Shown here piece by piece: positions 20,376-48,961 of a DNA stretch of 64,000 nucleotides. The notes below the pieces were generated by a model, which saw nothing but the letters and a program-made list of their open reading frames with translations, was not told the DNA's origin and did not search any database. The translations under genes were made by a program, and so were the position numbers. Position 1 is the stretch's first letter, and each line of letters begins with the position of its first letter. Source of the DNA: Leucoraja erinacea (lineage: Eukaryota); assembly GCF_028641065.1 (NCBI RefSeq), contig NC_073401.1:22444001-22508000 (forward strand), given 5' to 3'.

Positions 20376-20475
20376 NNNNNNNNNNNNNNNNNNNNNNNNN
20401 NNNNNNNNNNNNNNNNNNNNNNNNNNNNNNNNNNNNNNNNNNNNNNNNNNNNNNNNNNNNNNNNNNNNNNNNNNN
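20376..20475. other. Assembly gap (100 N)
   Basis: Exactly 100 N, the usual placeholder for a gap of unknown size. Confidence 0.99.
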
Positions 20476-24745: not shown

Positions 24746-26691
24746 AAGAAAATCATATGTATAAATTCATTTGCCGGATAAACGACTCTAAAATGTATTT
24801 AACGATGCCTTGTCAAATATAGGTTTAGCACTACACGCTACGGGGACACTGGTATCGCTGGCTCGTTGTGGGACATTGATCTTTTCTATTCTGGATGTTA
24901 GAATCATGTATTGTGTTTTTTTATCTATATATTTATGATGTGTTTAGTGATATACTCAGATTTTATATGTATTTTATGGTGGCAATGTAGTTTTTATATA
25001 ATGTTTGTCGTTTGTCTGACCTTGAGTCCGAAATAACGTGTATTAACGATAGAGAAGATTAACCCATATTCAGATAAGCATAACTCTGTAAGAACTATAT
25101 TCTGGACTATAGTGACTTAATGTGGAACACAACTAAAGGGATTGGTCGAATTCTTTGTGGCATTAAAAAAACAATCAACAAGAACAATGAATTGTATTAA
25201 TAAAGGAATATGACTGTGTTGCTACATCAGAGATCAGATCTATGAAAATTTTTTTTAAATATTGTAAGGAAACCGAAGCTGAGGTTTGAGGGTATAAAAC
25301 CTTACTTGCAACACGACAGTGGTAGTCCTTACAAATCAGAACCAGGCCCAATTCTGCCTACTCTCTGTTCATGAAGCCAGCCTTCGCTTCACGATAGCAT
25401 GTTACCTCTAGTACATGCATCATTTTCCTTCTTTGGAAATTGCACGTTAATCTTCAAAGTATTCCATGACATTAGACAAACGTTGCTTGCCAAGTTGCTT
25501 GAGCACTTCGGCACAAACGCATGTGATAGTTTTAATATTCAATAATATTCACGTGTTCCAACTATCCTACTATGACGCTTATTCTCGTCAAATTTGATCT
25601 AAAGCATCCAAAGAAATACTACGGTCGGCAAAATACCTCTAATATAATCTTTGTGATCACATGCCTGTGAAAGGAATGGACGTGGCGGATAAAATATATC
25701 TAGGAGTGCTTTCTGTGCCAGTGCCAGACCCACTGAAAATACGTGGCCAGGTAAGAGGATGAAGCATCAGTGGGCTGATATTTTTGAGGGTACAAACCAT
25801 TTGCATTTTACCCGTAAAGAATGTTTGGAAGAATGAAGAATAGTCCCGAAATCAGGTTTCCGAATTGCAAGAAGGCCGATTTCAGTAACATTGTAAGAAG
25901 TACATTCTGGATCGGTATTCCCTAGTGGGTTGGAGCTGTATTTTCGGCAAAATGACTGCATCAATCCAGAGAAGTGGTCCTTAACGATTACAAGAGTCCA
26001 CATCACATCCCTATATTTAACGTATTAAGGATCACAGTCCTTCTGTCATTTCATCTTTACCTGAAATTGCACTGCTAACATAATCTGCGGGATAACCCTA
26101 CGGGGAACAGATTGCTTCTCGACCAGCTGCCCTGGTAAACGCTGGCCCCTCGCTGGACCATCACAATGTGTGTGGTTTTGCTCCAACCGAGCATTTGGAA
26201 GCGCGCTTCGCATACAGGAAACATTCCACACAGAAGTGAATGCTTGTTAGTCATTAACCCCGTTATTCTTCGCTGTGGCTTCTATGCAATGTACATCTTC
26301 CCCTGCGTAAAAACGATAAAACTATATTTAATACGTAATCTTATTTATTTTAGAGAATATCTAGGTTGCTTTAATACGTCACTTCCATTAATTTGTTAAT
26401 GTGATGAATGTCCACGTCCATTGTCAAGTGCTAGAGTATATTCACGCAGATAGGGCAGCATCTTTTGGAGGACATGGATATGTTTATGTTTTTTGGTGGG
26501 GACCCTGTTCCAGAGTCTAAAGAAGTTTCTCGATCCGAAATGTCCTTACGAGACCATCTACTCCAGCATTGTGCGTTTTACTGAAGATCCAGCATCTCAC
26601 AGTCTCATCTCATTGAACGTCACAACCTTGTTCTGTTCACCATTTCATTACCAATGTTTAATCTTTTGAGACTTTCAGTCTGCCTGTCTAC

Positions 26692-26693
<2 letters not shown>

Positions 26694-26726
<33 letters not shown>

Positions 26727-26727
26727 G
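26694..26727. repeat. (TC)n microsatellite
   Basis: Direct reading. Confidence 0.85.
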
Positions 26728-28571
26728 TTGTTCTTACCCCATGATGCTCGCACGTAGAGTTACACTATGGATCAAGCAGAAATAATATTCTGCCAAACTC
26801 CAACAAGACGAGTAGAACATCTCTATTACCCTATAATCTCTTTTTGTTTCCAAAACCTAAAGTTCCAACAATACGCCAAATTTTAATCAACATTGATAGC
26901 AAGATGCGGATTAGTATGCACTGGTAAGCTTCTTGAATCACTGACGTATTCTGGCGATAGGACCCAAATCCTGCAATTAGAAAGGGATTTCCAAGAAATG
27001 AGCCCCCAACAATCGCAAAGCATAGCAATGTATTTCGCACTCAACATCGCCTGTGACTTGTCTAGCAAGAGAGGTGCTCCTATGCACACCCTTTGCTCTT
27101 ATCCTGATTCGGCACGGAGGTGTTGTCCGTGAGTCCTAGGCATAATTGTAATGTATTTTACGTATTGCCAAGAGAGTCGTGGCAATATATTATTACTTGG
27201 GAGAGGATGAATATTTGGAATGAGAAAAGTATCAAAGAGCGGATTACTTTCTTCTGGATGAACTTGATTGTTGTTTTACCTGCATGAGGAATTGTCCAAT
27301 GTATCCAGTTTATGTAAAGCGTTAATGTGGAGAGATCAGAGGATAACTGAGCAAAGGCAACTACACTGCGTACTGAAACATGGTCTGATGTCATCATTTC
27401 AACTAAAATGTTGTTAATGCCAGTTAAATGCTGCATAATCATGCCACGGTATCACAGGAATGATTCCGCTGTTCCAACAGAGATAGCATTTCCGAAGTAC
27501 CGAAGAGTAGAACAATTTGGGAAACAATGTTTGGGACATTGATGCCTTTGCTTGACCTGTGTGCATGTCATCGATTTGCGGACGTTAATGAGATGCGAGT
27601 ATTAACTGTCCAGACACATCAGCAGTACAGCCCGGTCTCCTTTGATTAATTACCAGCGAAATCGTTAGTCCAAATATCAACATTTTGAAAATGTAGACTG
27701 TTTTTTGACTGTATTTTCTTGTTCATCGCCGTTAGCACTGATTCGCCCAGTGTTACTACCCTGCAGGGATAATACACAAAGCGATAGGAGCGCTGCCGCG
27801 ACAACTAGCGCGATTAGGTTGCGATATAAAATCTGCTTACATTAGACCAAGTATAAGGCAACGCTGGTTGCATGTAAATATCATTTCATATGTCAGATGA
27901 AGTTGGACAGAAATTATATCATAGCATTGCAAGCACGTGCAGACATCGAGGTCTTTCATATATAAAACTCGCCAGCAGCTACTAACATGTCGATTAAACA
28001 TGTTTCTCAGTTTCTTTTCTCAATTAAGTCAATTGCCCGTGCTAAGCCAGTGAACATGTGTGCTGCTAGCAAGCATGCTTTCCAGAATTACAGCGGTGTT
28101 GACGGGGCATTGACACCCAAATCTGCAAATTCGTAACTAATTTTGAAGACAATTGCTTCTTCACATTGCGCTTTGAAAGATTTCCTACACACCATCTTCA
28201 TCAGAATATTTACCAGTTTCAAATAAAATGTGTGTGTGCAACTAAAAGGGTGAAGATACATGTCGCGTACAGTAGTGCGAGACCATGAGATCGGATTCTT
28301 CAGCCCCTGTTGGAATGCATCCCTTCATTGTTCAAGAGTGAATGAGCAGTCGCCAGGAATTATGATGAGGTTATTCGATTAATTTATTTGAAGTCGCATG
28401 CCGTGCAACTGCACAGCAAAAGGTTCAGAGTAAATGAAAAGGGATAATTCAACACCTCCTTACAAACTAAACAAAGTCTCTTATGTGATTCAGTCTATAT
28501 TAAATCGTCCCGAGGTACAAATGTACCGAGATAAATTGTACCGAGATATTCGACACCAAGTCTTTATTTAC

Positions 28572-28755
28572 TTTGGAAATAATTTGACCCAGGAAAAATC
28601 TGGCAACTTCTGATTGGCGCAACACGCATTCTGATTTGACTGTTGAAGGATAGATAAGGAACTCGAGGTGACGCCTTGTCACACGCTTCGTAAGCGACCA
28701 GGAGAGAAACACTGAGGAGCCACTTCACCTGGCGTTCTCCGCTCAATTCATTACA
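28572..28755 (+). promoter_or_regulatory. Putative proximal promoter of cluster 1
   Basis: 27-bp block 28597-28623 is identical to cluster 2 and includes CTGATTGG (inverted CCAAT). GTGACGccttGTCAC at 28668-28682. Confidence 0.65.
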
Positions 28756-28804
28756 ATGTCTTGCTGGATCTCTCTAGTCTATGCGTTAGTGTTTTCCGCA
28801 GCTT
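28756..28804 (+). CDS. Leader exon, cluster 1 (MSCWISLVYALVFSAA)
   Basis: ATG at 28756, hydrophobic 16 codons + 1 nt, donor GTGAGT at 28805; homologous to 45991-46039. Confidence 0.9.
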
Positions 28805-28921
28805 GTGAGTATTTACTTCAACCGACATGATATTTAATCTCGAGTACGATTAAACCTTTCTATCCGTGATAATTCTACTGTTATTAGTTAATATTCTACT
28901 TTTATCTGGTTTGTTTTCCAG

Positions 28922-29266
28922 ATATAAATGCGCAATTTGCACTAAATCAGCCGTCTTCAAAATCCACATCTCTGGGACAGAACGTGGAAATTGCCTGTAC
29001 CCTGTCTGGCGGCAGTTTAGGTACTACCACCGTTTATTGGTACCAGCAGATTCCCGGAGCGGTTCCGCGGTTTCTGTTCTACTATTGGTCGGGCAGCAGC
29101 ATTACTAGAGGCTAGGGAGTTTCTGAACGTTTCTCCGGATCAGTGTCAGGCAACACTGCAACATTGACAATATCGAACGTGCAGTCTAGGGACGCTGATG
29201 ACTACTACTGTGCTGTGTGGAAAGATGCTGTAATCTTCGGCAAAGGAACGAGGCTGGGTATTGGCA
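28922..29266 (+). CDS. Germline-joined VJ exon, cluster 1 (interrupted by TAG at 29113)
   Basis: Acceptor ttttccag. Reads [113 protein letters not shown]. Has conserved Cys, WYQQ, DYYC and FGxG; donor GTAAGT at 29267. Confidence 0.92.
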
Positions 29267-29292
29267 GTAAGTACAATACCTTCTATCTTTGC

Positions 29293-29465
29293 GTAGACAC
29301 AAAAAGCTGGAGTAACGCAGCGAGACAGGGAGCATCTCTGGAGAGAAGGAAAGGGTTTTAGGAAGGAACGGCAGATGTTGGTTTAAACCGAAGATAAGCA
29401 CAACAAGCTGAACAGGCAGCATCTCTGCAGGAAATGTAAAGGCTCTGCAGTTCCTTCCTGCATAT
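29293..29465. mobile_element. Short Penelope-derived repeat in the cluster 1 J-C intron
   Basis: gtagacacaaaaagctggagtaac...gcatctctggagagaagg matches the same repeat family; absent from the cluster 2 intron. Confidence 0.65.
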
Positions 29466-30465
29466 TTTGTCTTTGGGTTAATGATATAGCAGTGAAAAGT
29501 AATTGGTTTTCTGTCGCTAATCGATGGTTCAAAGGAAAAGCTTTTAACGCTAATATGTTCAGCGTTCGACTAAAGTCGAGATTCCTTTGGCAAATTATTA
29601 GACGTAGCTCTATCAAAGGGCCCAGATGTTAGAACGGCTGTTTGTATTTTTTACACTAAATGACTTTAAATAAAAGCTGATTTTTTTTTTTAATTCCCCG
29701 CCACGTTGCGTCTTTTTTGGCAAATTAGTTGAGAACAGCAATGAAAGGACGAAATGGCTGTCCGGTTGTGTTATTATTCTTAATTACTTTGCGGACAACG
29801 AGCTAATAATTAAGAATTAGACCGAGAGTAAGGGAACGGGAAATAACTTTGGGGGGATAGTATTCGCTATTCAACCTCGGAAATCTGAGATCAATCATGA
29901 CTTCAAAGAGAAGAGACTGGTCGAGAAAAAACAAACATATACGTTTCAGCATTAATGTAAATCATATCAACGACTATTTAAAATGCGAGAAAACGGTAAA
30001 TTTAACGTGGCTGCAAATCTAGTCTGTTCATTGATGGCGAAAACGGCAAAATATTCTTGTCGCTAAAATCCAACCATTAGGAATATTTCGGTATCTGGTC
30101 TTAACAAATGAACAGATGAATTAAGGGAAGGTATTTAAACAAAACTAAAGTTTTAAGCGCGTTTAGTGGAACTTTGGCAGCAATGAAAACCCGCAACTGG
30201 CTGTCGGGTAAAACGCAGTTTTTTTTTATTGTAGCTGGAGCCAACGAAAATAATACTCTGGAGATCAATTCAAAACACTGCCGAAATAATATATTTTACG
30301 CTGCTGCGCATATTCTGTCCCATTGCCATAAATAGTAGTTATTGTTTGGAGATCTCACTTGGAACGAATGAATCCATGTTATACCAACTGTATTTTTAAC
30401 AAAGATAATGTTTTAACCGAAGCAGTTCTGCCAGCCCTACTAATCTGTGACTTTATTTTAAATAG

Positions 30466-30788
30466 ATCCTCTGCCCCCCGCGGTGTCCGTGCTTGGACCT
30501 TCAGCGCAAGAATTGACGGGAAAGGGAACGGCCACCCTGGTGTGTTTGGTGAACGGGTTTAATCCGGGTGCTGTGGAAATTGACTGGACCGTGGACGGCA
30601 GTGCGAGGAGTGATGGCGTTGAGACCAGCCGGGTCCAACAGGAGGCGGACAACACGTTCAGTGCGAGCAGTTACCTGACTCTGCCAGCCACAGTGTGGAA
30701 CGCACACGATCTTTACTCCTGTGTGGTTAAACACGAGTCGCAGGCAAGCCCGCTGCAGGCAAACATCGCCAGGTCCAGCTGTCTGTAA
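30466..30788 (+). CDS. Light-chain constant exon, cluster 1 (lambda/type II-like C1-set domain)
   Basis: Acceptor aaatag at 30465. PLPPAVSVLGPS...ATLVCLVNGFNPGAVEIDWTVDG...FSASSYLTL...YSCVVKHE...IARSSCL*, with penultimate interchain Cys. Confidence 0.95.
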
Positions 30789-31002
30789 AACCTCTAGATT
30801 CCAACAAATCAAACTGACAAATATTGTTGCTCCGTCTTTCATTTGTCAAAAATTGATATAAAAATATTCTCTATTATCGACTAGCATTTGCGGTAACATT
30901 GTCCTTTGTCTCGCTGTTTGTAAACGTCATTCAATTGAAGCAACTCGTTGTGAATTGAAACTCCAATGTTATTCAATCTGTTAAATGCATTCCCAAATAT
31001 TC

Positions 31003-31008
31003 ATTAAA
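31003..31008 (+). terminator. Candidate poly(A) signal ATTAAA, cluster 1
   Basis: 215 bp after the stop codon, followed by GT/T-rich ggtttgttttgttt near 31035. Confidence 0.5.
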
Positions 31009-31432
31009 AGACAGTGGTCTAAAGATTACATTCAGGTTTGTTTTGTTTACCCACGTGACTAACATACAAATACAGCTCGCGACTAAAATCAATAATTCAA
31101 TCTTAAGAGCGATACATGTGTTGGATTTTTATTTCTGATCAGAGAAAATCAAATGTATTTAATCAACCTTCATCATTTTACCTTATGGAAGAACCGATGA
31201 TAAATGTGGCCGAACGTTATGTTATAAACTGGTGTGATGATAAATTGGTTCATAGAGCCGCGCGCGCGCACACGCACACACACGAACAAAATGGGGCGCT
31301 CATGTAGAAACGTATTCGAGGGCAGACAGTAATCGTTATATGTGACCTTGCTAATACTATTCACTTAGCAATTCCAACCTATTTCATCTGTGAATTAACT
31401 GGGTGGGGCTGGTGGTGAGTGAGATTAATATG

Positions 31433-31625
31433 GAAACATAGAAACATAGAAAATAGATGCAGGAGTAGGCTATTCGGCCCTTTGAGCATGCACCGCCATT
31501 CAATATGGTCATGGCTGATCATCCAACTCAGTATCCCGTAAGGCCTTCTCTCCGTACCCCCTGATCCCTTTAGCCACAAGGGCCACATCTAACTCCCTCT
31601 TAAATATAGTCAATGAACTGGCCTC
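31433..31625 (-). mobile_element. CR1 3'UTR fragment
   Basis: (GAAACATA)n tail plus reverse-complement 3'UTR. Confidence 0.85.
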
Positions 31626-31814
31626 ATTGTCTGGCAGAATATGGTCTTTCTGCCTTTATATAGGGCGCTAGCACACATGGAGTATCACATATAGTTTTAC
31701 TTTCCTCGCCTAATAGAAGTACTGAAGTTCTTGGTTGGTTCCTGCTGAGCTGATTAGCGGGATAAGTGTACGCTGCGCGGAACGACTGAGAAGCGTAGCC
31801 TACCTTCTCATCCA

Positions 31815-32012
31815 CTCCCTACACAGTGGGGGCAATTTTACAGAGGTCAATTAACCTAGAAACCCGCAATCTTTGGGATGTGGGAGGCAAACCACGGCAC
31901 CACATGGGAAACGTGTAAACTCCTCACAGACAGCATCCGAGCTCAGGATCGAACCCTGGTCTCTGGCGCTGTCGAGGCAGCTGCTCTACCAGGTGCGCCA
32001 CTGTGCCGCCCC
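31815..32012 (-). mobile_element. tRNA-derived V-SINE
   Basis: Minus strand GGGCGGCACAGTGGCGCA...GGTTCGATCC...gagtttacacgtttcccatgtg...gcctcccacatcccaaag. Confidence 0.8.
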
Positions 32013-34489
32013 ACAATATATAATATATCAGCCACTGTAATATCTAAATCTCGTAGTGGTCTTGGCAGGAAAGGTGCAGACGTAATTTCTCCTGATTGAT
32101 GAGTGCAAACTATAATTTGCAGTATCCACAAAGCGCAGAACATAGTACAGCACAGCACACGAACAAGCCTTTCCGCACTCCATGCCTCTGCCGACATGAT
32201 GCCAAAACCAAATCTTATCTGCGGGCACGTGATCTGGATCCAGAAATCTTACAAATGCCACTGTTGCTTGTGTCGCCACCACCACCCTCGCCAACGCCTT
32301 CACAGTCCTCACCAACCTCTGTATATAAAATGTCCATGCGTCTCTCTCCTTAAAGCTATGTCACCTAGTCCTTGATATTTCCACTCTGAGGGGAAATGGT
32401 AATCATTCTCTGCCCTATCTATGACTCATAATTGTATATAATTCTAGCAGGTCTCCCCTGATAGTCAACGGTTACAGGGAAAACAACCCAATTCTGTCCA
32501 ACCTGTGCTCGTAGTTCAGGTATCATGCTGGTAAACATCCGCTGAGCCCTTTACAAGGCCTATAATTTCCATCTAGTATCAGGGCGACCAGAAATGATGG
32601 CAGTACCCGAAATGCAGCCTAGCAAAAGTCCTATAAAAGTTAGCATCATGACTCGCCTGCCCTTATCCTGAATGCCCTGCCCAATGAAGGAAAACATACA
32701 ATATGCATTCTCACCACTCTATATAGTAGTGTTGCCACTGAAGGAGATATAGACTTGGTTCCCAAAATTCCTCTGTACTTCAATACTGTTGTTATTAATC
32801 GAAAGTAGATACAAAATGCTGGAGTATGTCAGCGGGTCAGGCAGCGTCTCGTATATTTCTCCTCATAATCGACCCCTCCCCCAGCAGTTCAATGCTCTGG
32901 TTAATCTGCATCTATCATTTCATCTCTCATTTTTATACCTATCCCGCTGTTTACTTTGACAGCCTTCCTCACTGTCAGCAACCCAAACAATCTAACTGTC
33001 ATCTGTAAACGTATTAACTACTAGAGAAGGTGCAGAGACCTTTGTCATGGCTCCTGCAATCTCGTCTGTTGTGTCTCTCAATAATCTGTCCATTCATGCA
33101 CACTGCCCCTCAAGACACCCAACACCTACTTCTTAATCACACAGTGCCTTTGCATATGAATATTCGCCACATTGATCTCACTCTCCTCCTTGTCTTCTCC
33201 TTGATTAAAAGACGTACAACGACTATATGTTGGTTCACTCTCCCGCACGCGCACACACGCACACACTCACACGAATACAATAGCGCGCTCATGCACAAAC
33301 CCATCCGAGAGTGACCACTAACCGTTGCATAAGATCCTTCTAATCACTTGGGAATCCGATCAATTTCATCCTGGAGTGAAATGGGTGGGGCTGGTATTGA
33401 GTGAGAGTAATGGGAGGCAACCGGGGAGCCCGGAGAAACCCATATTATCACGTGGGGAATGTGCAAACTCCCAGCCTTGGTCAGGATCGAACCCTGGTCT
33501 CTAGAGTTGTGAGGAAGCAGATCCACTCCACACAGGTGCGCCGCTGTGGCACCCTACAATATATAGTATATATGCCTCTGTAAAATTCTTAGTGGTATTC
33601 GCAGAACATTTGCAGACGGTATTTGACCTGATTAGTGTGTGCAAGACTGAAGTTTGCAGTCTTCATAAAACGTAGAACGTAGAACAATACAGCAAACGAA
33701 CAAGCCCTTCGGCCCACAATTTCTCTGCAGACATGAAACCAAAACCAAACCTTATTTGCATGCACATGATCCGTATCCCTGCATTCTTATATATACTCAC
33801 CAGCACCTCTCACATTAAAGCTATGCCATCTCGTCCTTGATTTTTCCATTTTGGGGAGAAAGTGTTTTGACTCAATCCAATCTATGACTCTCATAATTCT
33901 GTATACTTTTGGGAGGTCCCATCTCATCCTCGGGCGTTGCAGGGAAATCAATCCAATTATGTCTCACCTCATCTTGTGGTTATTCTGGTTAAACTACATC
34001 TGCCATTTTGTCGCCCATTTCTGCACCTGGTCTCTAACCTGCTGCATTCCCCCTAATTGAGCATCATTCTGCTAAACATCCTCTGCATCCTTTGTAAAGC
34101 CTCCACATCCATCTAGTACTGGACCGCTCAGAAATGTAGACAGTAGCCACACTGAAGCATAACAAAAGTCCAAAAAAGTAGCATAATGACTCTATGGCCG
34201 TTATCCTCAATGTCCCGACCAATTAAGGCAAGCATGCCATCTACCTTCTTAGCACGATATCTAGTTGTATTGCCCATTTCAGAGAATTACGGACTTGGTT
34301 CCTACGCTCGCTCTGTGCACCAATACTGTTGTAATTCATTCTATATTTTCCCCCTTACAGTCGACCTCCTAAAGTGTCGCACCTCACACTTATTCTGGTT
34401 AAACTACATCTGCCATTTTGTCGCCCACTTCTGTACCTGGTCTCTTTCCTGCTGCATACGTTGACAGCCCGCAGTCCGCAACCCAAGCA

Positions 34490-34800
34490 ATAGAAACATA
34501 GAAACATAGAAATTAGGTGCAGGAGTAGGCCATTCGGCCCTTCGAGCCTGCACCGCCATTCAATATGATCATGGCTGATCATCCAACTCAGTATCCCGTA
34601 TCTGCCTTCTCTCCATACCCCCTGATCCCCTTAGCCACAAGGGCCACATCTAACTCCCTCTTAAATATAGCCAATGAACTGGCCTCAACTACCTTCTGTG
34701 GCAGAGAGTTCCAGAGATTCACCACTCTCTGTGTGAAAAAAAGTTCTTCTCATCTAGGTTTTAAAGGATTTCCCCCTTATCCTTAAGCTGTGACCCCTTG
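34490..34800 (-). mobile_element. CR1 3' end
   Basis: Copy of 2250-2558. Confidence 0.9.
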
Positions 34801-37800
34801 GTCAATCTTGGTGTAATCTGCAAATTTACTAACCAACCCATCTACATTTACAACCATGTAATTCATATATATCACACGCAACTGAGGAAGGTGCACAGGT
34901 GGCTGCAGAACTGCATAGGTTGTCGATCTCCTGTCTGGAAAGTGTCCTTCCACCACAACACTAACTTCTATCCGTAAAATAGTTCCAAATCCACACGTCC
35001 AAGTCACTGTTAATCCCGTGCAATTTAATCTTCTGGATCAGCCTACCATAGGGGACTTTATCAAATGCCTTATAAAATCCACGTGCACGATGTCCACTGC
35101 CGGGTTATTGATTACCTTGGTCACCTCCTCAAAACCTTCGATCAAGTTAGTAAGGCACCAGCTGCCGCGGATAAAGCCATGCCAATTAATATGTCTAAGT
35201 AAACCATTCTCTTCCAAATCCCAATCTGAAGAATCCTCTCCGTAGTTTATCATTCACTGATTAGTGGCGCACTGGCCCATAAATTCCCGGATTCTCTCTA
35301 CTTCCTCGGTTAAACAAAGGATCAACACTAATTACTCTCCAGTCCTCAGACCTGGCCTGTTGCTGAAGGTGCAAGGATCTTCGTCGAGGCTCCTGCAATA
35401 TTCCCTTTTGTCTCTCGAATAACTCGTTGATGTATCCACCTCAACGATTACCTTTCTTCACGACCACCAATACCCCCTCCTTCTTAGTCTCACAGTGCCC
35501 TTACATCCATGAAACTACCAGAGCAAAGAATATAGTAAAGAGAGGTTACAATATTACAGTTGCAGATAAAGTGCAAATAGATAATGCAAGGTCAATGAAG
35601 TAGGTTTGGAGCCAACAGCGAGGGAGAAACGTCCCTGACTCTGGTGGTACATGTTTACAAGCTTTTGTGTCTTCTGTCCGATGGAAGAGCGGAGACCAGA
35701 GGGATAATGGTCTATGATCATGTTGGCCGCTTTCTGAAGCAGCGTAAAATGTCGTAAAATGACAGTCTCTGAAATGTAGACGGAGTCTATTGGGAGAGGT
35801 TGCTTTTGTGATAGACGAGGGTACATTAGCAACTCTCTGTAGCATTTAGAATTAACAATAATGTAATTGTTTACAGAGCTATCAACAGAATCTAGACGGC
35901 ATATATCGACCATGGAGTGAAAGCACGCAGTAGAAACTGGTTTGAATTGATTTTCTGCCTAATGACTAATTGTGGCGACCAGTTGAGTTCCTCCTGCAAT
36001 TTGGGTTTTTTATCGCTCCACCTGAGAAGCATCTCCTTTAATGTGTCCATATGTCTACAGGCAGGTCAGCCTGGGAGGGAAGGTATTGCATTTGTAGTTA
36101 GAGGTGCTCGGAATGGCGAACAGTGGCAGAGATGGGGCAGCATGCAAGCAATCACGACTGTACCTCGCGACACTGAATTTCCGAACCTAATTAAACTTTT
36201 CAACATTATCATTGTGGCGCCTCACATATTCGCGTACACATCCACCTACATTTTTACTGTGATGCATATCCCGGCTGCACATGGCCTTTATTTATCAATT
36301 ACTTTCGGTCGGATGGCACAAAGTAATCACAAATCAGGAGGACGCACGACAAATATTCGCCTCACTCGTCTGGGTTAAAACCTCAGTAGTTCTGTCAATG
36401 TTCAATTTAATATTGTATGTGTAAATATTCTGGCAAATACAGTAATAAATTGAATTGGCAGATGGTCGATTAGAATGTAATTAGAAGCTACTTGGCAAAA
36501 GATGCTTATGTAGTAAGAATGATTGATAAGTTTGTTGATGGCACGAAAATTCGTGGCATTGTCAATATTGAGATTGCAGTCAGTTTGCAGATTGATGTTG
36601 ATCACCTGGTCAAATGTGTAAGATAATGCCAAGTAGAATGTAATCCTGATAATTATGTTCTGTTGTACATTGCGGCATTATATAAGTGTAAGTCACAAAT
36701 CATGCAGGGTAGGTTCCAGCATTGAGCAGCAACATTCGTTAATCTGCAAGTCTAAAGTTCCATGGAAATGACAGGGCAGGTATAACATGCTAAAGAAGGC
36801 TTATGAAGTACTTTCATTGTCCAGTGTATCCGATATCAGAAAACAGAGGACTACATCCACATTTCTAAAATATTGGTTATGTCACAACTAGAATACTCGG
36901 TGCCGTTCTGATCAGCACTGCATCGAACGCACAGGAATATTCTGGAGAGATTGCACAGAATCTTCATCTTGATGTTGCCTGTGATGGAATGTTTCAGCTG
37001 TAAGGTAAGCCGCGATATGCCGGTGCCGTTTTGTTAGGTGCATCTGAGGCTGTTTTGCAAACATGATTGGGATATTAAAAAAATATGAGGGACACATATA
37101 GCGCAGACAATAAGGCACTTATATTCATAGCAGAAGTGCGCAAGCCTGAAGGGCACAGGTCTAAGATGAACATTGAGAAACTAGCGATGATCTGAGGAAG
37201 AGGTGCCTCATCCAAAGAGCGGTTGCCATCTGAAATGCACTGCGCAAGAAGATGGTGGACGAAGATACTCTCAAAATGTTGAGGAAGCTTCTGGACGAAC
37301 ATCTGAATTGACAATCTATGATAGATTACAGACCTAATTTTAGTGAATAGCATTAATGTGGAAAGACAGTAGATGGGCAGATTATTAATTTCGATGATTA
37401 ACAGTTGATAGACATGGTGAGCCGCCGGGATTTCAGTATTTCTGTGCTATGGGAATCTACAACTTCCTATCTTTCTGACCTCTAATATCATCAACGTCTG
37501 AGTACGTTTGGTGAGTTACTACCCTACTGTGAAAGAAAAGGTTACCAGCACCCAATGCTTCCTCTCTAATCATATACCACTCTTACATGTCAGCGTACCA
37601 CCTTTTCTTCCTTTCTGCCGGGAGTAAATCCAAGAACGGCATTTATGGTGGGTTTAGGGATGTACCGTCACCAAAACGTGTGCAGCAACTCGAGAAGGTG
37701 CTAATCACGACGGTGTAAATCATGATGGTTACGCTAACAGTGTGCCTTACCAGAAAAAATAAACCACGTGCAAACTACATTTGACAATCACGATGCGTCG

Positions 37801-39098
37801 GGCAGGTCATCGATCCATCTTTCTGTCTTCATTTTCCTTTGAAATGGACAGATTAACGATTAAGGATTATGCATCACATCCGAGATTTGACGTATTCGGG
37901 ATCTCAGCGCCGTGTCTTTAACCGAAATTGCACGAATACAAAAATCAATATGGGCTGATTGCTTCTTCTTAGGTTGGCCTAGTAATACTACCCCATATGG
38001 GCTCCTCACACCTAGTATCTGCAACAGTAAAAAGACCCTGATGGGAGTTATGTACGGGCTTCCAAACAGTAGCCAGATTGTAGCGTACAAATTACACCAG
38101 AAGATGCAAAGGTCATGTGGATTTCAATATGCAGGTAGACTGAGAAATTTAAGGTTGGTACTGGATCCCAGGAGAAGGAATTTGTAGAGTGCCTCCAAAA
38201 TAGTTTCTTAGAGCAGCTTATGTCGAGCCTACTAGAGAAAAGCAATTATTTATGTGGCATTGTGTAATGAACTGTTTTTGACTAGGGACCTTAAGTTTAA
38301 AATATCCCCAGGAGGTGGTGACCATAATATGATGAAATTGAACCTGCAGTTTGAGAGGGAGAAGACGAAACTAGATGTGTCGGTATTACTGTTAGATAAA
38401 GGTAACTACAGAGACATGAGGGAGAAGCTGGCTAAAGTTGAATGGAAAAGGATCCAAGCAGGAACGACGGAGGAGCTGCAATAGGAGGAGTTTCCATTAA
38501 TAATTCGTACGATGCATGATATTTCATTCCAAAGAGGAAGAGAGTTTCTAAGGAGAGAGGGACTGACACAAAGTTACTTAAAAAGCAATATGGAAAGAAA
38601 AAATGAAATATAAAGTTGCTAGCCACTAATGTAAAAGAGGTGAGCAAAAGTGTATTTATAAGAGAGAGGGAAGAGTAGACATTGGACCACGGGAGAATGA
38701 CGCTGGAGAAGGGATAATGTGGAATAAATGAATGTCAGATTAATTTAATAGGTTTTTTCATCGAACCTCACAGAGGCTTCAAGAGAGTTGGGGACAGAAA
38801 CTAGTGGAGTTGATATTACTAAGTAGGTGCTTGGGTCTGAAGTTGAATAAATCACCTGGACCAGATGTGCTGCACCCCAGTGTTCTGAAGAGACGGTTTT
38901 AGATATTGTGGTCGTGTTTGTGGGGATCTTTCACTGGGGTCAGAAGTGGGCACAGTGGACCAGTAAATTGCAAATGTTACTCTGCATCTCAAGATGGGAG
39001 CATAGCAAAAGAGGGGAACCTATAGACCACTTAGCTTCACTTCAGTGATTGGTAAGATTTTAAAGTCCATTAAAAATGGTGAGGTAACTGAGTACTTA

Positions 39099-40995
39099 TG
39101 GAGGAGCTAAATACTATTAAGATCACCAAGGAGGTGGTATTAGGGAAATTAATGAGACTGAAGGAGGATAAATCCCCTGGGCCTGATGGATTACATCCAA
39201 GGGTCTTGAGGGAGATAGCGGTGGGGATTGTGGATGCATTGGTGATGATTTTCCAAAACTCCCTGGAGGCAGGAACGGTCCCAGTGGATTGGAAAATGGC
39301 CAATGTAACACCTATATTTAAAAAAGGAAGTAAACAGAAGGCGGGTAACTATAGACCGGTTAGTCTAACATCGGTGGTGGGTAAAATGTTAGAGACAATT
39401 ATTAAAGAAACACTAACGGGGAACTTGGATAAACATGACTTCATCGGACAGAACCAGCATGGTTTTGTGAAGGGGAAGTCCTGTTTAACGAATCTGCTCG
39501 AATTCTTTGAGGAAGTAACAACCCGGGTGGATAAAGGGGAACCGGTGGATGTGGTATACTTGGACTTCCAAAAGGCTTTTGACAAGGTGCCACATAAGAG
39601 ACTATTGCTAAAAATAAAAAATTATGGGATTGGGGGTAATATATTAGCATGGGTAGAGGATTGGCTAACAAATAGGAAGCAGAGAGTGGGGATAAATGGT
39701 TCATACTCGGGATGGCAACCGGTAACTAGCGGGGTTCCGCAAGGGTCGGTGCTGGGACCCCAGTTGTTCACAATTTATATAAATGATTTGGAGGAGGGAA
39801 CCAAGTGTAATATATCAAAATTTGCGGACGATACAAAAATGGGAGGAAAAGTAGGGGATGAGGAGGATAGGAAGAGTCTGCAAAAGGATATAGATAAGCT
39901 AGGTGAGTGGGCAACAACTTGGCAGATGAAATTTAATACTAATAAATGTGAAGTCATTCACTTTGGGGAAAAAAATGCTAGGGCAAGTTATTTTCTAATG
40001 AGGAGGAGCTGCGTTGTAATGCAACGCAAAGGGATCTAGGGGTATTAGTACATGAATCACTGAAAGTTAGTATGCAGGTGCAGCAAGCAATCAGGAAGGC
40101 TAATGGAGTTTTGGCCTTTATTGCTAGGGGGATTGAGTATAAAAACACGGAGGTCTTGCTGCAGCTGTACACAGTATTAGTGAGACCACATTTGGAATAC
40201 TGTGTACAGTTCTGGGGTCCATACTTAAGAAAGGATGTACTAGCCCTGGAGACAGTGCAGCGAAGGTTTACAAGATTAATTCCTGCAATGAGGGGATTGA
40301 CATATGAGGAAAGGTTAAGTAGGCTGGAACTCTACTCTTTGGAGTTTAGAAGAATGAGAGGCGATCTCATTGAAACATATAAGATCGTGAGGGGCCTTGA
40401 TCGGGTGGATGCCCCGAGGATGTTCCCAATGATCGGGGAAACTAGAACTAGGGGACACAGTTGCAGAATAAGGGGGGGCTCTTTTAAAACTGAGATGAGG
40501 AAGAACTTCTTCACCCAGAGGGTGGTTAATTTATGGAATTCACTGCCCCAGGGAGCAGTGGAAGCAGAAACTTTAAATATATTTAAGACTAAAATAGATG
40601 GTTTTTTAGCTGCCAAGGGGATAAGGGGCTACGGGGAGAGGGCAGGGATATGGACCTAGGTATGGTTAGTATAGTAAGACCTGAGTGATCTCCTGGACAA
40701 GTGTCGATCGCCTAGATTGGGGTCGGAGAGGAATTTCCCGGATTTTTTTCCCGAATTGGACCTGGGTTTTTATCCGGTTTTTTGCCTCCCCCAGGAGATC
40801 ACGAGGTTCTTGGGGTGGAGAGGGGTGATAGCGGTATAAAGGGGAGGGTAGTGTCTTGTGTTCTGTGTCTTGTGTCTACTGTTTGTGGGTAAGTGTGTCT
40901 GTTTAGTGTTCAGCCATGAGCGAATGGCGGTGCGGGCTCGATGGACCTGGTGGTCTGCTCTCGCACCTACTTTCTATGTTTCTATGTTTCTATGT
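39099..40995 (+). mobile_element. Young CR1 LINE of a second subfamily, 5'-truncated, long 3'UTR
   Basis: ORFs 39098-40039 and 40072-40659 form an RT broken by one frameshift; (TTTCTATG)3 tail; flanked by TACTTA repeats. Confidence 0.95.
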
Positions 40996-41257
40996 TACTT
41001 AGAAGCACATGATAAAATTTGGCAGAAGTCAGCGTGGTTTTGTGAATGGGAAATATTGCTTGTTGGAATTCTTTGAGGAAGTAAATAGCAGGATGAACAC
41101 TGGATGTTGTTGACATGGGTTTTCAGAAGACATTTGATAAGCTGCTGCATATGAGGCTGCTAAAGAAGATGAGAGCCCGCTGTATTAGAGGGAAGATAAT
41201 ATCACAGATAATATAATCCGTGTACATTATATAGTTGTATGGCAGAGTGGGAATAAA

Positions 41258-41264
41258 GGGGGGT

Positions 41265-41302
<38 letters not shown>

Positions 41303-41310
41303 GGGGGGGG
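41258..41310. repeat. Poly-G tract (poly-C tracts also at ~9330-9366, ~15632-15660, ~53366-53396)
   Basis: Direct reading; these tracts explain the poly-Pro/Gly ORFs. Confidence 0.9.
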
Positions 41311-42099
41311 TCCTCATTGAAACCTGCTGAATAGTGAAAGTCCTCGATGGATTGGATGTGGAGAACATGCGTACACATGTGGGAGAGTCTAGGACCAGAG
41401 GACACAGCCTCAGAATAAAAGGACAGACCTTTGGAGATGAGAAGAAGGTTTTTTTTAGTTAAAGGCTAGTGAATCTATAATATCCTTACACAGACAGATG
41501 TGGAGGCCGAATTAGGTATTGTAAGGTAGGAATTGTCCGATTATTTAGTATTAAGGATGTCAAAGGTTATGAGCAGAAGGCAGGAGATTGAGTGAAAGAT
41601 AGATCAGCCTTGAATGAATGGCATATGAGGCTCGATGGACCGAATGGCACCAATTCTACGCCTATGCATTGTGGACTTTGTGTACAGTTTGCCCCCAACT
41701 CAGCTATTTGGAAGCAACATTTTCATTACTGAAAAGATTCCACACAGATGTCATTGTTTGTGGCACAGTGATCCCGTTATTCATGAGTTACAGCTTTTAT
41801 GCACTGCCCTTCTACTCCGATATAAAACTATAAAGCCGTATTTAAATCCCTATTCCTATTTATTTTACCGTTTTTTAATTGTTTTAATACTTCATTAAGT
41901 TGTCAACGATACAAGTTATAGAAATCTGTATTCCCACTGGCTACGAATATTCTTTGAGCCTAATCTCCCTCATTCTCGGAATAACTCAGTCTGAAGAAGA
42001 ATCCTGACCCGAAACAATGCCTATCTATGTCCTCCCAAGATGCTGTCTAACCCACGGAACAACTGCAGAGCTGTTTCACTGAAGATTCCAGCATGAAGA

Positions 42100-43175
42100 A
42101 TTGAATGCAAAGCCGTAGATGTTGTTTATATGGATTTCAGGAAAACATTTTCTAGGGTTTGGCGTGGTAGGCTGCTCTGGACTGTTAGCTCGTAAGAGAC
42201 CTGAAGAGCACTAGCCGACTGGATAGAGAATTGGCTTCATGGAAGGGAGCAGACGGTGCTGGTGGAAGATTGTTTTTCTGGCTGCAGGGTTATGACCAGC
42301 GGTGTGCCTCGTCGATCACGACTGGGCCCATTGTTGCTTTTGGTTTACATAAATGATTTGGATGAGAATGTAGAAAGCACGATTGGTAAATTTGCAGATT
42401 ACAAGAAAGTGGCTGGTATAGTAGATGGCAAAGATAGTTATCAACAATTATAGCATAAACCTGATCAGTTGGATAAATAGGCTGAGGAATGGTTAATGGA
42501 TTTAATGCCAATAATTGCGACGTTGTGCATTTTGCGAAGTCAAACCAGGGCAGGGTCTTCACAGTGAATAGCTGGTCCTGTGGAGGGAGGGGTTGTTTAG
42601 AGGTTGGGATGTTATGTTACAGTTGTAAAATATGTCACTGAGACTGCTGTTGGACTATTAAACTTAGTGTTTGTCACAGTGATGTTTGAGAGAAGGGTGT
42701 TATTAATCTGGAAAGAGTGCGGAGAAGATTTATTAGGATGTTGCCATGACATGAAGCCCTGAACGACTGGGAGACGTTGGCAGGCTCGGATTTGGAGTGT
42801 AGGAGGATGATGAGTCGTGTTATCGAGGTGTTCAAGATCATGAGGGGAATAGAAAAGGTAAATGCACAGAGTCTTTTACCCAGAGTTGGGGAATCAAGAA
42901 ACGGAGGATTTAAGTTTAAGGTGAGAGGAGAATGATTCAATGGGAACCTGGGGCGAAACGTTTTGACACAGAGGATGGTGAGATATAGACTGAACAGCCA
43001 GAGTAAGTCGTTGAGACAGGCACAACATTTAAAAGACGCTTCGACAGGTATATAGCCAGTAAAAGTTTAGCGGGACATGGGCCAAACTCGGGCAAGTGCG
43101 ATTAGTGTAGTCAGGTCATCTTGATCGACATGGGCAAGTTGGCCGGAGGAACCTTTTCCTTGCTGTTGGACTCTT
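42100..43175 (+). mobile_element. Old degraded CR1 RT 3' fragment
   Basis: TSGVPRRSRLGPLLLLVYINDLDEN...KFADY in ORF 42256-42453; decayed 3' end. Confidence 0.8.
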
Positions 43176-43194
43176 ATGGTATTATGAAGCTATT

Positions 43195-43492
43195 AGTTTA
43201 GTTTAGTTTAGTTTAGTTTAGAGATACAGCGTGGAAACAGGCACTTCGACCCACCGAGTCCGCATCGACCAGCGATCCCATCACATCACCACTACCCTAC
43301 ACACAAGGGACAATTTACACTCATACCAAGCCAATTAACCTACAACCCTGGAAATCGAAGATCTCGGTGAGAAACCACGCTGTCACGGGGAGAACGGACA
43401 AATTCCGTGCAAACAGCACCCGTAGTCGGTATCGAACCCTGATCACCGGCGCTGCATCGCTGTGAGGCAGCAAATCTACCACTGCGCTACCC
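43195..43492 (-). mobile_element. tRNA-derived V-SINE (HE1-like) with (TTTAG)n tail
   Basis: Minus-strand head with B box GGTTCGATAC, V-domain-like core, CR1-like tail and (TTTAG)n repeat at 43195-43221. Confidence 0.8.
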
Positions 43493-45814
43493 TGCAGCTA
43501 TCTGTAGCTCATTGTGCATCTACTCCACTTTCACCTTCCTTGAAAGTCTCAACCCTCTCTCTTCAACACTTTATTTCAAAATGTATTTTTTGAGTTTCTC
43601 CACTTGTTGCTAGTCTCTCTTTGTGGCATCACTCTCTCACACTCTGTCCTTCATAATGTTAGCACGTAGAGTTACATTATAGCTACAGCAGAAATACTAT
43701 GCTGCAAAGCTGTAGCTAGACTCGTACGACAGCTGTACTTTTCCGTCCTCCGCTTCTGTTTCCAAAACAAATAGATTATGTTTACGTCTTCCAAAGCCTG
43801 TGTCTTCCTGCAACTTTCAGAAAGCGCATTGTTCCAGAAACGCATTACAACTGAAATATATGTGCTCCATGCATCTTGTTATGTTTTATGACAGTTGGCA
43901 ATCCAATTCCCCTCCTGGGATAAATAAATGCTATCGTGTCGTATCGTACCGTATCGCCCTTGGGAAATATGCCAAGCAAAACTAATCACTTCATCCACCA
44001 ATACATCCAATTTTCGTCACCATTGCTTGTAAGGTGAGTACTTGCGACACATATCCAATTACTCCTCAGAATGTGCCCATGTGCGTCCTTCTGGGATCAC
44101 AATAATATTCTGTCGATAGAACCCTCACCATATTATTGGAAAGGGATTACCAAGACAGGCCCAGCAATCGGAACCCGAAGAAGGGTCTCGATCCAAAACG
44201 TCACCATTCCTTCTCTCCAGGGATGCAGCCTGTCCCGCGGAGTTACTCCAGCTTTTTTGTGTCTATCTCCAGCAATCGGAAAGCTGGTCAAAACATTTCC
44301 CAATTCAACGTGGTCTGTGACTTGTATCGCAACAGTGTAGCTCCTATGCCCACTCTTTATTTTCATCCTGGTTGGCATGGGAGTGTTGGCCGCGGATTCT
44401 AGTGAAGTAATTGCAGTACATTTTGTATGTGGTAAAGATAGACACAAAAAGCTAGAGTAACTGCGGGTCAAAAAGCAAATACTATCGTCGCGATACATTA
44501 CTCATTGGAGTGAGTAAACACAGGTGCAGAGAATGGGGTGTCAATCAATCGGATTATATTGCTCTGGTTGAAGTTTATCCACGTGATTGCTGTTGGAGCT
44601 GCACTCATCTGGGCAAGCTGGGAAAATTCCCCAATTCGTCCAGTTTATGGTGGGAAACCCTTCGTGTAAGGAAATGAGAGTGGCATGCACATTGGTAATT
44701 GGCAAAACAGGAGTGTGATACTAGCGCCTTGAAACGTATTCTTATGTCATAATTTCAAGTAATATTTTGTTAACATCCATTTAAGTATGCGTAACCATCC
44801 CAAGTTATTACAGGAATATTTTCCATGCTGCAACAGCGAAAGCATTTCAGAAGTACTGAGGAGTCGAAGAGCTTCGGAAGCAAGTCTGTTGATTCTCGTG
44901 CTGTTAATCCCATGGCAAGGGTAATCCATGACATTCACTGAACATTATCGTTATAATTAGAGCCACTGGTTTGCTTTTTAAAATCTAGTATGATGCAACG
45001 CTGGTTCCATGTAAATATAATTTCCCACGTCGAATTAAGGTTGTTGGAATTAAAGACAAGGCAATCTAGAACCGCCGACACATTTGACTTTTTTTTAACA
45101 TATACAACTCGCCATAAGCCCTGTGGTCGATTAAACATATTTGTCATGTTTCCATCTCATTAAGTCAATTTTACGAACAAAGTGAGCGGACGTTTCAAAT
45201 GTGGGTGCTGCAAGAAATCATGCTTTCCAAATTTACTGCAAAAGCATTACATTAAATTTGACCGTGATTTCCAATAAATATACAGTAAGACTTACAAATT
45301 TGCCAATTTTACAAATTCAAAATTAATTTGCAATCAGTTATTTATTCGCCTTGTGCTTTTAGAAAATTTCGATACACCATCGTCACCAAAATGCTCACCA
45401 GTTTCAAAAATCAATATGCAACTAAGGAACGTGTCGCGCACAGTGCGAACACACCGTGAGATCAGGACTCAGACACTCTCCACATGGAATGTATCTCTTT
45501 ATTTTTTATGAGTGAATGAATAGTCGGCGGATATTATCATGGGTTTATTCGATAAGTACATTTTGTTTTAATTTACGCATTGTGCAACCGCACCGAAAAG
45601 GGTTCAAAATAAATGAAAAAATATATTGAAAATAGACACACAAATCTGAAGGAACTCAGCGGGACAGGCACCACTCTGGATTCAACGAATGGGTGACGTT
45701 TCGGGCATCATGAATGTCCCATTTCAAACAAAATGAAATCTCTTATGCGCTTGAAAATATATTAAATCGTACAGGAGCAGACAATTAGAATTCGGATATT
45801 GACCTAGCTAAAGG

Positions 45815-45990
45815 TTTGGGAATAATTTGACACAAGAAGAATCTGGCAACTTCTGATTGGCGCAACGTGAGTAGTGATTGGAATGTTTTGCATACGAACA
45901 CCCAGTGACGCCTCGTCACACGGTTCATAAGAGACCCGGAGAGTAACGTGTGTACCACTTCACCAGGCGCCCCCCACTCAGATATTTACA
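45815..45990 (+). promoter_or_regulatory. Putative proximal promoter of cluster 2
   Basis: Conserved block 45840-45866, octamer-like TTTTGCAT 45886-45893, inverted CRE half-sites GTGACG-cct-CGTCAC 45905-45919, TATA-like CATAAGA near 45927. Confidence 0.7.
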
Positions 45991-46039
45991 ATGTCTTGCT
46001 GGGTCCGTGTAGTCTATGCATTAGCGTTTTCCGCAGTTT
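45991..46039 (+). CDS. Leader exon, cluster 2 (MSCWVRVVYALAFSAV)
   Basis: ATG at 45991, donor GTGAGT at 46040. Confidence 0.9.
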
Positions 46040-48961
46040 GTGAGTATTCTACTGACACCGACATGATGTTTAATTTCGAGCACAATTATAACTTTATTTT
46101 ACTGACGCATGTTGTTTCGCGAATGTAAATGAATAGTTCACCTTTTCTAATTCTTCTTCCAGGTATAAACGCGGAGGTTACACTAAATCAACCGCCTTCA
46201 CGGTCCACGTCTCCGGGGCAGAACGAGCAAATACCCTGTACCATGTCTGGCGACAGTTTAGGTAGTACCAATGTTTACTGGTACCAACAGATTTTTGGAA
46301 AAGCGCCGCGGCATCTGCTCTACTTTTGGTCGGGCAGCAGCATTTACAGAGCTTCGGGAGTTCCTGAACGTTTCTCCGGATCAGTGTCAGGCAACACTGC
46401 AACATTGACAATATCGAACGTGCAGTCGGAGGACGCTGCTGACTACTACTGTACCGTGTGGAAAGATGCTGTAATCTTCGGCAAAGGAACGAGGCTGGGT
46501 ATTGGCAGTAAGTAAAATATCTTCACTATTTGGGTGCTTGATACTACAGTGAAAGGCAATTAGTTTAGTGTCGCTTAATTAATGGTGCAAATAAAAGTAT
46601 TTTAAAGCCTATCTTTTCTAAATACACGGCTAAAATCAAGTATTTTTTGGCAACTTGATTGAAGTAACGATATGGGATGGGCAAATGCCTTTTCGGCTGT
46701 ACATTTTTCATTCTTAATTACTTTTCAAACGATGAACTAACAATTGTCAACCAGGGTAGGAAATAGGCCGGCGGTAAAGAAGCTTGTCTTCCTTCTTGTG
46801 ATGGCACGAATTATTCTATTAGAAGACGCACCTTCAATAATAGCACTGACTTTGGGTTGATGCCCCATCGCGAACTCTGGAATATCCGAGAGCTGCGCAT
46901 CATTCGACACTCGTGGGTTTTTCCTAAAATTATGAACATGTATAGATAAAGAAAGTGCATTTCTCAGAATTATTGGTTCAAACCCAATAACCTGTCAGAC
47001 ACCTGGAATCTCGCTTTGAATTGTTTTTATATGGATTGGTAAACTTGTATTAGGCATGAGGAAAAGATTGGAACAATTCATAAGATTGTATTTAATTTTC
47101 CCTGACGTGGGTTTCGGTATCGAGAGTAGAAGTGCAAATGTATAAGATAATAATAATGTAAATTCCTGCCGGCTGTGCATTAGTCGCCTTGCGCCATTTT
47201 TCTGTTACTCTTCCCGCTAGAGGAGCAGTGCAGCAGTGTTTCCGGTATATGGAATCTGACCGTAGTTAGAGGATTTTTTTTCTTTGGCGCCCAATGAAAT
47301 AGAAACAACGTGAAAACAAACAAATTAGTCAGTCAATTAGAACAGGCTTCTTCAGATGTTCAAATAATTTAGCCATATCCCGAGAAGACTATTATCACAT
47401 TTATCCTGCATTTATTTTACATTTTTTAAACTGTTTAAACGCTAGTTTGAATTGTTTAATGTGTATTTAATTAGCCACTGAAGGGAGTTGGGGCATTCCA
47501 ATGCTCTTCTATTGGAATTAAAATTTAACCCGAATCGCCTTCTGAAGCAAAGTTGCGCCAGAAACAAACAAAAACGCAGAACCAAAGCGAACGTCCTGAC
47601 ATCGTCAATTATTAGTTTAAATAGTCCTCCCTCCACCACCATTTGGAAAATTTTAGAGGACCAAGAAACCAAGAAGAACACTTTAGTTTATGCTTTCAAA
47701 TGCGTGCTTAATTATTCCTCCTATAGATTCTCATTGTTATTGAAATACTGAGGTCAATCATTTTCAGTTAAATATGATGTTGAATTCCTTGCGTCATTAT
47801 ACATTCCGGGATCAATGTGTTTTATGTTGTGAAATGTAATCGTGGATTGTCATCCTGTCGTGGTGGAGAAGCTTGTGTGGTCCTGAGAGCGATGCCGTCT
47901 GGAGCTATGCTCCTGATAGGGTCGCCCGTGGCGGTAAGGTCGAGGGGGAGGTCTTTGACAAAGAGCAATTCAACCAAGTCCTCAACGGTGGAACAGGCAG
48001 AGGATGATGGCTGACCTTAGTGGAGCGTCACAACGGCTGTGAAGGCGGATGAAGGCTGCATCCATGCCACTGGATTCTGACCCAGACTTGTCAAGGACCA
48101 TGTGGTGGCTGCCTGTGCGTTAAATAAACGTCTTCCCACGCACCGGCGTCCTCTATGAGAGGACATTCATATTCGTTTGGAGTGGCCGACATACTTTCTG
48201 TGTGGGCATTCTGGAATCACTAGGATAGCGAATATTTTAACTTGAAAAATAACTTTAAAAATTTGAATTTACATTGTACCTTAAATTTCTGAACCATCTC
48301 AGATAAAATCAGTTTTATTCCAGGGGATGTCTTAGCGCGTTTTGTTTTTGTTGGCGCCGCTGAGTGAAGTGAGCAAGATTCATTGTCCTATTTGGGAAGT
48401 CTGAGCTAAATTATAACTTCAAAAAACATTATAGCTTTCGAGAAAGGCATATGAACTTCAAGGTTAATGTGGAACAGTTCAAGAATAATAATAATGTGGA
48501 ATATTTCTAAAACAATTTAGAATGCGATAAATAGTATGTTTGACATTGTTGCAAAATTAGATTTATGCGTCGTGCCAATATGATCATTTCTCTACTTACG
48601 CGACTATTAATAATACTGCAAAACCTTGTTTCAAACAGACCCACGCGCCCCCACAGTGTCCGTTCTCCGACCGTCAGCGGAGGAAATCACGGGAAAGAAC
48701 ACGGCCACCCTGGTGTGTTTGGTGAGTGGGTTTAATCCGGGCGCTGTGAACATTGACTGGACCGTGGACGGCAGGGCGAGAAGTGACGGCGTTGAGACCA
48801 GCCGAATCCAACAGGAGAAGGACAACACGTTCAGTGCGAGCAGTTACCTGACTCTGCCAGCCACAGTCTGGAACTCACACGAGCTTTACTCTTGTGTGGT
48901 TAAACACGAGACTCAGGCTAACCCGCTGACGACAAACATCGCCAAGTCCACCTGCATGTAA
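45991..48961 (+). CDS. Ig light-chain cluster 2 (lambda/type II-like), germline-joined L-VJ-C, intact 238-aa spliced ORF
   Basis: Exons 45991-46039 (49 nt) + 46163-46507 (345 nt) + 48639-48961 (323 nt) = 717 nt, in frame, no internal stop, canonical splice sites. Confidence 0.95.
46163..46507 (+). CDS. Germline-joined VJ exon, cluster 2
   Basis: Within ORF 46129-46515: EVTLNQPPSRSTSPGQNEQIPCTMSGDSLGSTNVYWYQQ...[46 protein letters not shown]. Acceptor cttccag, donor GTAAGT at 46508. No RSS between V and J. Confidence 0.95.
47843..48172 (+). mobile_element. RTE/BovB-like 5'-region-derived short element in the cluster 2 J-C intron
   Basis: tgtcgtggtggagaagcttgtgtg..ctgagagcgatgccg..gggtcgccc..ggtc..gacaaagagc resembles RTE 5' ends as I recall them; GC-richer than its AT-rich flanks; absent from the cluster 1 intron. 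Confidence 0.6.
48639..48961 (+). CDS. Light-chain constant exon, cluster 2
   Basis: Acceptor aaacag at 48638. PRAPTVSVLRPSAEEITGKNTATLVCLVSGFNPG...WTVDG...VETSRIQQEKDNTFS...YSCVVKHE...KSTCM*, which resembles shark lambda/type II C regions as I recall them. Confidence 0.95.

Follow-up and report, generated by a model that had tools for sequence, protein, structure and literature searches.

The window, that is, the whole 64-kb stretch of skate DNA that was analysed, harbours two immunoglobulin light-chain clusters, G1 (28756-30788) and G2 (45991-48961), both on the + strand and each composed of a leader exon, a fused VJ exon, an intron and a C exon (Table 1). Pfam recognized a V-set domain in G2 (E=3e-16) and a C1-set domain in the C exon of G1 (E=3e-25); with leader, V-set exon and C1-set exon placed in one small cluster, the layout is that of the lambda (type II) light-chain genes of cartilaginous fish. 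The best protein matches are batoid proteins named 'lambda-1 light chain-like' (the top one, from Amblyraja, at 93%), a source name carried by 31 of the 35 protein matches, although these names were assigned automatically and not from a four-isotype tree. The VJ frame is continuous in 18 of 19 clusters, as expected of genes joined in the germline, and a scan with the consensus motif found no RSS-like site around G1 or G2. Two reviews (PMC5192425, PMC4279169) describe lambda (type II) genes as germline-joined in all cartilaginous fish studied.

On the same contig lie at least 14 close VJ exons, at least 19 complete C exons and a further C-exon fragment. The clusters were labelled a-e, f, h-l, m, G1 and G2, with p-t located 400 kb away; p-t were excluded from every VJ analysis. 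Protein alignments were prepared without P0002 and P0034 (the non-skate mean also without P0035) and protein trees without P0030, P0035 and the skate's own b, c, e, i and j, and the comparison with orthologues and other relatives from Amblyraja, Rhinoraja, Pristis and stingrays was at the protein level only.

Several features of the surrounding sequence were recorded along the way. For cluster s (L053, G000:C25:22952300-22961000), the VJ-protein match ends at the V end (residue 98), and its J may be split, frameshifted or missing. A lone C-exon fragment (L040, G000:C25:22364036-22364181) showed no match to V within 7 kb of retrieved sequence. Cluster f (L041) has a divergent J, FAKGTRVAVG, in common with its Amblyraja orthologue; f is nearer to the core genes than a-e are, yet it is the J of a-e that matches G1 over 23-24 nt. 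Long open frames at window positions 11445-13509, 39092-40659 and 62232-63203, of which many copies lie between clusters, are presumably pieces of CR1/L2-type LINE reverse transcriptase.

Table 1. Coordinates of the annotated features in the 64-kb window
Feature	Position	Strand	Basis or remark
Scaffold gap, 100 N	20376..20475	.	Later sequence restarts collinear with DNA ~32 kb before the gap
G1 leader exon	28756..28804	+	ATG and GT donor located; aligned with 13 paralogues
G1 VJ exon, joined in the germline (lambda/type II light chain), stop-broken	28922..29266	+	Alignment
G1 FR2 patch	29038..29086	+	49-nt perfect run shared with h, i, j and l, against 48 of 49 nt for k
In-frame TAG in G1	29113..29115	+	The 13 other close genes read TCG or ACG here
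FR3 patch	29123..29186	+	64 nt, G1 = G2; protein here in the ancestral state
Lineage-marking sites, residues 89-90	29187..29189	+	Overwritten in neither gene
CDR3-J-splice donor	29215..29273	+	59 nt, G1 = G2; J part also identical in h-l
MITE-like repeat of very high copy number, in J-C intron of G1 and m	~29293..29480	.	Alignment insertion; summed depth up to 3.8 million; inverted-end joints
G1 constant exon (C1-set)	30466..30788	+	Pfam, alignment
Mid-C block, very low silent divergence among distant clusters	~30608..30737	+	G1 among the least homogenised
G2 leader exon	45991..46039	+	
G2 germline-joined VJ exon, open frame	46163..46507	+	
G2 partner of the reported tract	46364-46514		Counterpart of 29123-29273
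G2 constant exon	48639..48961	+	

Identity between G1 and G2 along the VJ exon

Alignment of G1 with G2 reproduced the counts given by the first-pass annotation, with 44 differences over 28922-29122 (201 nt) and only six over the next 151 nt (at 29187, 29188, 29189, 29198, 29212 and 29214), among which those at 29188 and 29198 are private changes of G1. The identity claimed from CDR3 through J and the splice donor also holds, the first intron difference being at 29274. As 30 of these 59 identical nucleotides, those of J/FR4, are identical in all five h-l genes as well, only ~18 nt of CDR3 are informative. The contrast between the two parts of the exon exceeds chance in raw counts, and at silent sites it does so only modestly.

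The drop of identity in the intron had been taken to mark the end of a conversion tract, which is not borne out. Of the first 28 nt of the intron, 22 are identical, and further in the identity is 68% over 225 aligned sites, a level that equals the non-coding background of this pair (74% upstream and 68% in the 3′ flank), and alignability past ~29293 is lost due to the insertion of the repeat in G1 and m.

Tests for gene conversion in the FR3-J tract

For G1 and G2, pS is 0.06 in the tract versus 0.33 in 5′ V and 0.21 in C. With the window fixed, silent differences at third positions number 1/43 in the tract versus 18/124 elsewhere (7/42 and 11/82 pooled; P=0.021; Fisher test). A shift in GC3 was rejected as the cause of this low silent divergence, as none is seen from 5′ V to the tract in either gene. 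The deficit is not significant when outgroups are included (p=0.085 and 0.14). MaxChi within VJ gave p=0.009 but placed the break at 29049 and not at 29123. GENECONV-like global P values for the tract (these and the other permutation tests were run with custom code, not with GENECONV or RDP) were 0.001 when all 14 genes were used, 0.12-0.45 for the set of 8 and 0.05-0.10 for five representatives. A further contrast came from a triplet count, which controls for regional constraint, although the tract window was chosen post hoc: G1/m and G2 agree against h-l at 11/15 sites in the tract versus 27/86 in the other coding sequence (p=0.003) and 112/470 gene-wide (p=1e-4).

The first-pass annotation had named uniform dS along the exon, together with congruent trees of its segments, as the outcome that would speak against conversion, and here the evidence is divided. 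The dS is not uniform for G1-G2, yet the trees are congruent: in the FR3-J tree G1/m group with h-l (support 50), with the same topology as in the 5′ V and upstream trees. The AU test rejected neither topology (p 0.59 versus 0.54; 0.51 versus 0.64 for the strict tract, at low power with 144 nt), and the program warned that its 5000 replicates were few.

Much of the similarity in the tract needs no conversion, as the protein is well conserved also between species that cannot have exchanged DNA. Against 20 non-skate proteins, the mean amino-acid distance of the 3′ part of G1 and G2 is 0.67-0.70 of that of their 5′ part; the 3′ part of G2 shares 42/48 residues (88%) with two stingray proteins, as compared with 44/48 with its Amblyraja orthologue and 44/48 with G1, and J is identical in seven of the eight closest genes. 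Even the distant a-e genes have almost the same J (a 24-nt run with G1), which was rejected as proof of conversion since the ~8 silent sites involved are too few. KDAL-type CDR3s are likewise present in stingrays and Rhinoraja.

These observations raise the question of whether any exchange took place in the tract. If none did, purifying selection, aided near the splice site by some synonymous constraint, would have kept FR3-CDR3-J ancestral in both G1/m and G2, h-l would have diverged, and the low silent count would be chance in a window picked by eye. Consistent with this, seven of the 11 shared triplet sites are ancestral (that is, changes of h-l) and three are shared-derived, all at variable amino-acid positions; in J, pS is 0 in all core comparisons; and when the silent-site scan over VJ+C was left free to choose its boundaries, G1-G2 reached only p=0.087, at rank 21 of 36 pairs. 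The congruent topology and the stingray identity point the same way. However, silent sites in this tract are mutable, as f versus the core genes has a pS of 0.64-0.68 there; the h-l branch is not faster in the tract than in C (11/139 versus 21/308), and it is the G1/m and G2 branches that are short (4/139 versus 31/308). The CDR3 residues also argue against full retention: KDAV is native to the G2 lineage, being present in the Amblyraja G2 orthologue (P0001), whereas the relatives of the G1 lineage have KSAC (as in the Amblyraja G1 orthologue) or KDAL. Descent without exchange is regarded as unlikely, and some exchange within 29123-29273 as somewhat probable.

Any such exchange did not take the form of a single tract. 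Residue 90 (29189) is G in G1/m and in their Amblyraja orthologue, and E in G2 and in its Rhinoraja and Pristis relatives; this retention of the lineage state in both genes, which also favours descent without exchange, rules out one conversion of 151 nt, and at most two short patches were exchanged. A short patch in CDR3, passed from G2 to G1/m, would fit the distribution of KDAV. Of the proposal that gene conversion homogenised FR3 through J, the part that survives is exchange in short patches, which is plausible here and well supported elsewhere in the locus; one homogenised tract is not.

Probable exchange elsewhere in the locus

The G1-G2 tract is one of the weaker examples of exchange at this locus. 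In the FR2 patch of G1, which is identical to h, i, j and l, m differs at seven sites, and the motif reads FLF in G1 and h-l and YLF in m and the Amblyraja orthologue; the GENECONV-like global P is 0.001-0.02 with 8 genes and 0.39 with the VJ-only set of 14. Because, over the whole gene, h-l side with G1 and with m in near-equal numbers at the sites where these two differ (51 versus 46), the case for this patch is carried by the clustering of such sites and by the orthologues. It was likely converted from a donor of the h-l type.

Among h-l themselves, the 2:3 splits shift along the gene, with hk predominating in FR1, il in CDR1, ik in CDR2 and jk in FR3-CDR3, and neighbouring sites are compatible at 61/83 versus 42 after shuffling (p<1e-4). 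Runs of identical splits lost their significance once tandem sites were collapsed (p=0.07). The retest of h-l was done without the misaligned 3′ end (18/114 sites).

The C exon carries a further signal. For f versus h, k, l and G2, the mid-C block has 0 silent differences in 34-40 sites, compared with an overall ~40 at 129-143 sites (600 permutations, P=0.002 for each pair), and for a versus p, 9/27 silent differences in the first part of C are followed by 0/29 in mid-C. A mid-C lysine is present in 16/19 clusters and 5/6 Amblyraja proteins, while threonine is found in 6/6 Rhinoraja and 5/5 Pristis proteins among those tabulated. The low silent divergence of mid-C spans clusters up to 700 kb apart. 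Synonymous constraint may account for the silent deficit, but it leaves the lineage-specific lysine unexplained. Thus the C exons exhibit the two marks of concerted evolution, lineage-specific states in ancient paralogues (across species, at the protein level) and silent homogenisation.

The G1 stop codon and the scaffold gap

The in-frame TAG of G1 was overlooked in the first-pass annotation, and in runs X1, X2 and X22 no contig or read that spans this codon contains it. A related organism transcribes a G1/m-like gene, with the J-to-C splice (29266>30466) found in 34 RNA reads, and all 21 reads at 29114 are free of the stop; in a single-cell run of the best-matching organism, sampled at ~1%, reads fell on the repeat only. 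G1 is likely a broken allele of m, the next gene upstream.

The relation of the two genes is linked to the scaffold gap upstream of G1. After the gap, the first 1060 nt have 95% identity to pre-gap DNA, and the sequence then continues collinear for ~32 kb at 0-7% divergence. Among the pieces listed for an independent DNA run, there is one low-depth contig series, with a G1-like intron 1, m-like CDR1-CDR2 and no stop. We consider it quite probable that m and G1 represent a single locus, as alleles carried by two divergent haplotypes, the alternative being a tandem duplication that ends at the gap; the collinear 32 kb would probably be two haplotypes placed in tandem, and gene counts near the gap would be inflated by allelic copies. 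The flanks of m and G1 (26400-27600 and 31000-36000) are 99-100% identical, and their gene bodies are 3-10% divergent, locally 17%, the reverse of what purifying selection would lead one to expect.

The pre-gap copy is without the 12.9-kb segment at window positions 36815-49757, in which G2 lies, and a 363-nt inverted piece is found at the junction (4577-4939 versus 36871-37233). A possible explanation is that template switching made an entire light-chain cluster polymorphic for presence or absence.

The position of G1 inside the overlap that starts at the gap also invites the explanation that the gene is an assembly chimera, in which a consensus of m, h-l and G2 reads produced the patches and the stop as artefacts. 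The G1-specific bases in FR2/CDR2 and the stop are indeed missing from X1, whose contig is of the m type there. Nevertheless, X1 equals G1 exactly at 28650-28863 and 28834-28966, without the intron insertion of m; m, whose CDR1-CDR2 bases are matched by the X1 contig, also resembles G2 in FR3-J (eight differences); and the C-exon and cross-species signals are independent of G1. Chimerism is accordingly judged very improbable.

CDR3-J diversity among clusters

The further proposal, in which directional conversion drives a fixed CDR3-J module through the joined genes as CDR1 and CDR2 diverge, could cite the 59-nt identity and the near-identical J of a-e, but it is the least probable of all and largely refuted. 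KDAV is present in just 3 of 19 copies (G1, m and G2), two of which are probably alleles and one of which, G1, is a pseudogene. The h-l genes, whose intron 2 and C are 97-99% alike among the pairs examined, have five different CDR3s (KNPF, INPF, VNAF, INAF and LNPF) with a pN of 0.12, equal to that of CDR2. Moreover, a Rhinoraja protein (P0023) combines a G1-type 5′ half with an h-l-type CDR3, and the Amblyraja G2 orthologue carries h-l-type FR3 residues; the donors thus differ by lineage, and nothing fixed is spreading.

Discussion

The identity of G1 and G2 in the tract is best explained by purifying selection on FR3 and J together with one or two short patches of germline gene conversion between the G2 and G1/m lineages, a reading to which we assign a probability of about 0.62. 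Under it, ectopic recombination between tandem clusters would copy tracts of perhaps tens of bases, with unequal exchange between the tandem germline clusters acting alongside. Pairing would occur mostly where selection keeps enough identity, as in FR2, FR3, J and mid-C, so that exchange could both homogenise the conserved blocks and reassort CDR variants among close copies. The CDR3 patch may have passed from G2 to G1/m before G1 and m split. Taken as a whole, the locus is most likely a case of ordinary patchwork gene conversion plus purifying selection within a known gene system.

Concerted evolution by ectopic gene conversion is known in tandem families such as protocadherin clusters, opsins and MHC. 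As in the skate locus, short tracts in conserved blocks, lineage-specific shared residues and mosaic trees are seen in such families; the skate lambda genes differ in that the substrate is a pre-joined antigen-receptor exon, and exchange can therefore also reassort CDRs. The germline-joined lambda (type II/NS3) clusters of cartilaginous fishes share with this locus a germline-fused VJ, one VJ plus one C per cluster and many clusters, but the sections consulted of the two reports (PMC5192425, PMC4279169) deal with organisation and expression and not with exchange between clusters, whereas here 19 clusters were compared at base level. In discussing somatic mutation, one of them (PMC4279169) mentions 'some evidence' that V regions of cartilaginous fish undergo gene conversion. 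The type I light-chain genes of Raja erinacea are likewise all joined and fall into sequence groups, with differences enriched in CDRs and an excess of replacements (PMC2192082); they belong to another isotype, and the abstract of that report makes no mention of conversion. In chicken B cells, Ig gene conversion also places templated patches from paralogous V genes, with germline-fused VD pseudogenes among the donors, and pseudogenes occur in both systems, but the chicken process (PMC2193156) is somatic, AID-driven and directed at one rearranged gene, while the skate patches are inherited, being present in an assembled genome, and include C exons and introns. A search of full-text literature with poor coverage of older subscription papers listed no study that followed exchange among skate lambda clusters at the level of single bases.

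The first-pass annotation had also suggested a germline route to repertoire shuffling. Five near-identical genes whose partners shift from one CDR to the next, and G1-type fronts joined to different CDR3 donors across skates, lead us to a tentative form of this idea: combinatorial light-chain diversity of the skate lambda genes, which are unable to rearrange, might be built in the germline, through reassortment of CDR1, CDR2 and CDR3 modules by ectopic conversion between pre-joined clusters, and divergent haplotypes with cluster presence/absence might add a population-level repertoire, the two together serving as an inherited substitute for V(D)J joining. We hold this possible but doubtful. 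Lambda light chains of sharks and skates lack junctional diversity, and how their repertoire evolves in the germline is a fair question. Exchange is likely an ordinary process here that affects the whole gene cluster; with short tracts exchanged between clusters, trees and dates can be misleading when taken from C exons or from entire V exons, and the shuffling of CDRs between clusters is directly testable with phased skate genomes.
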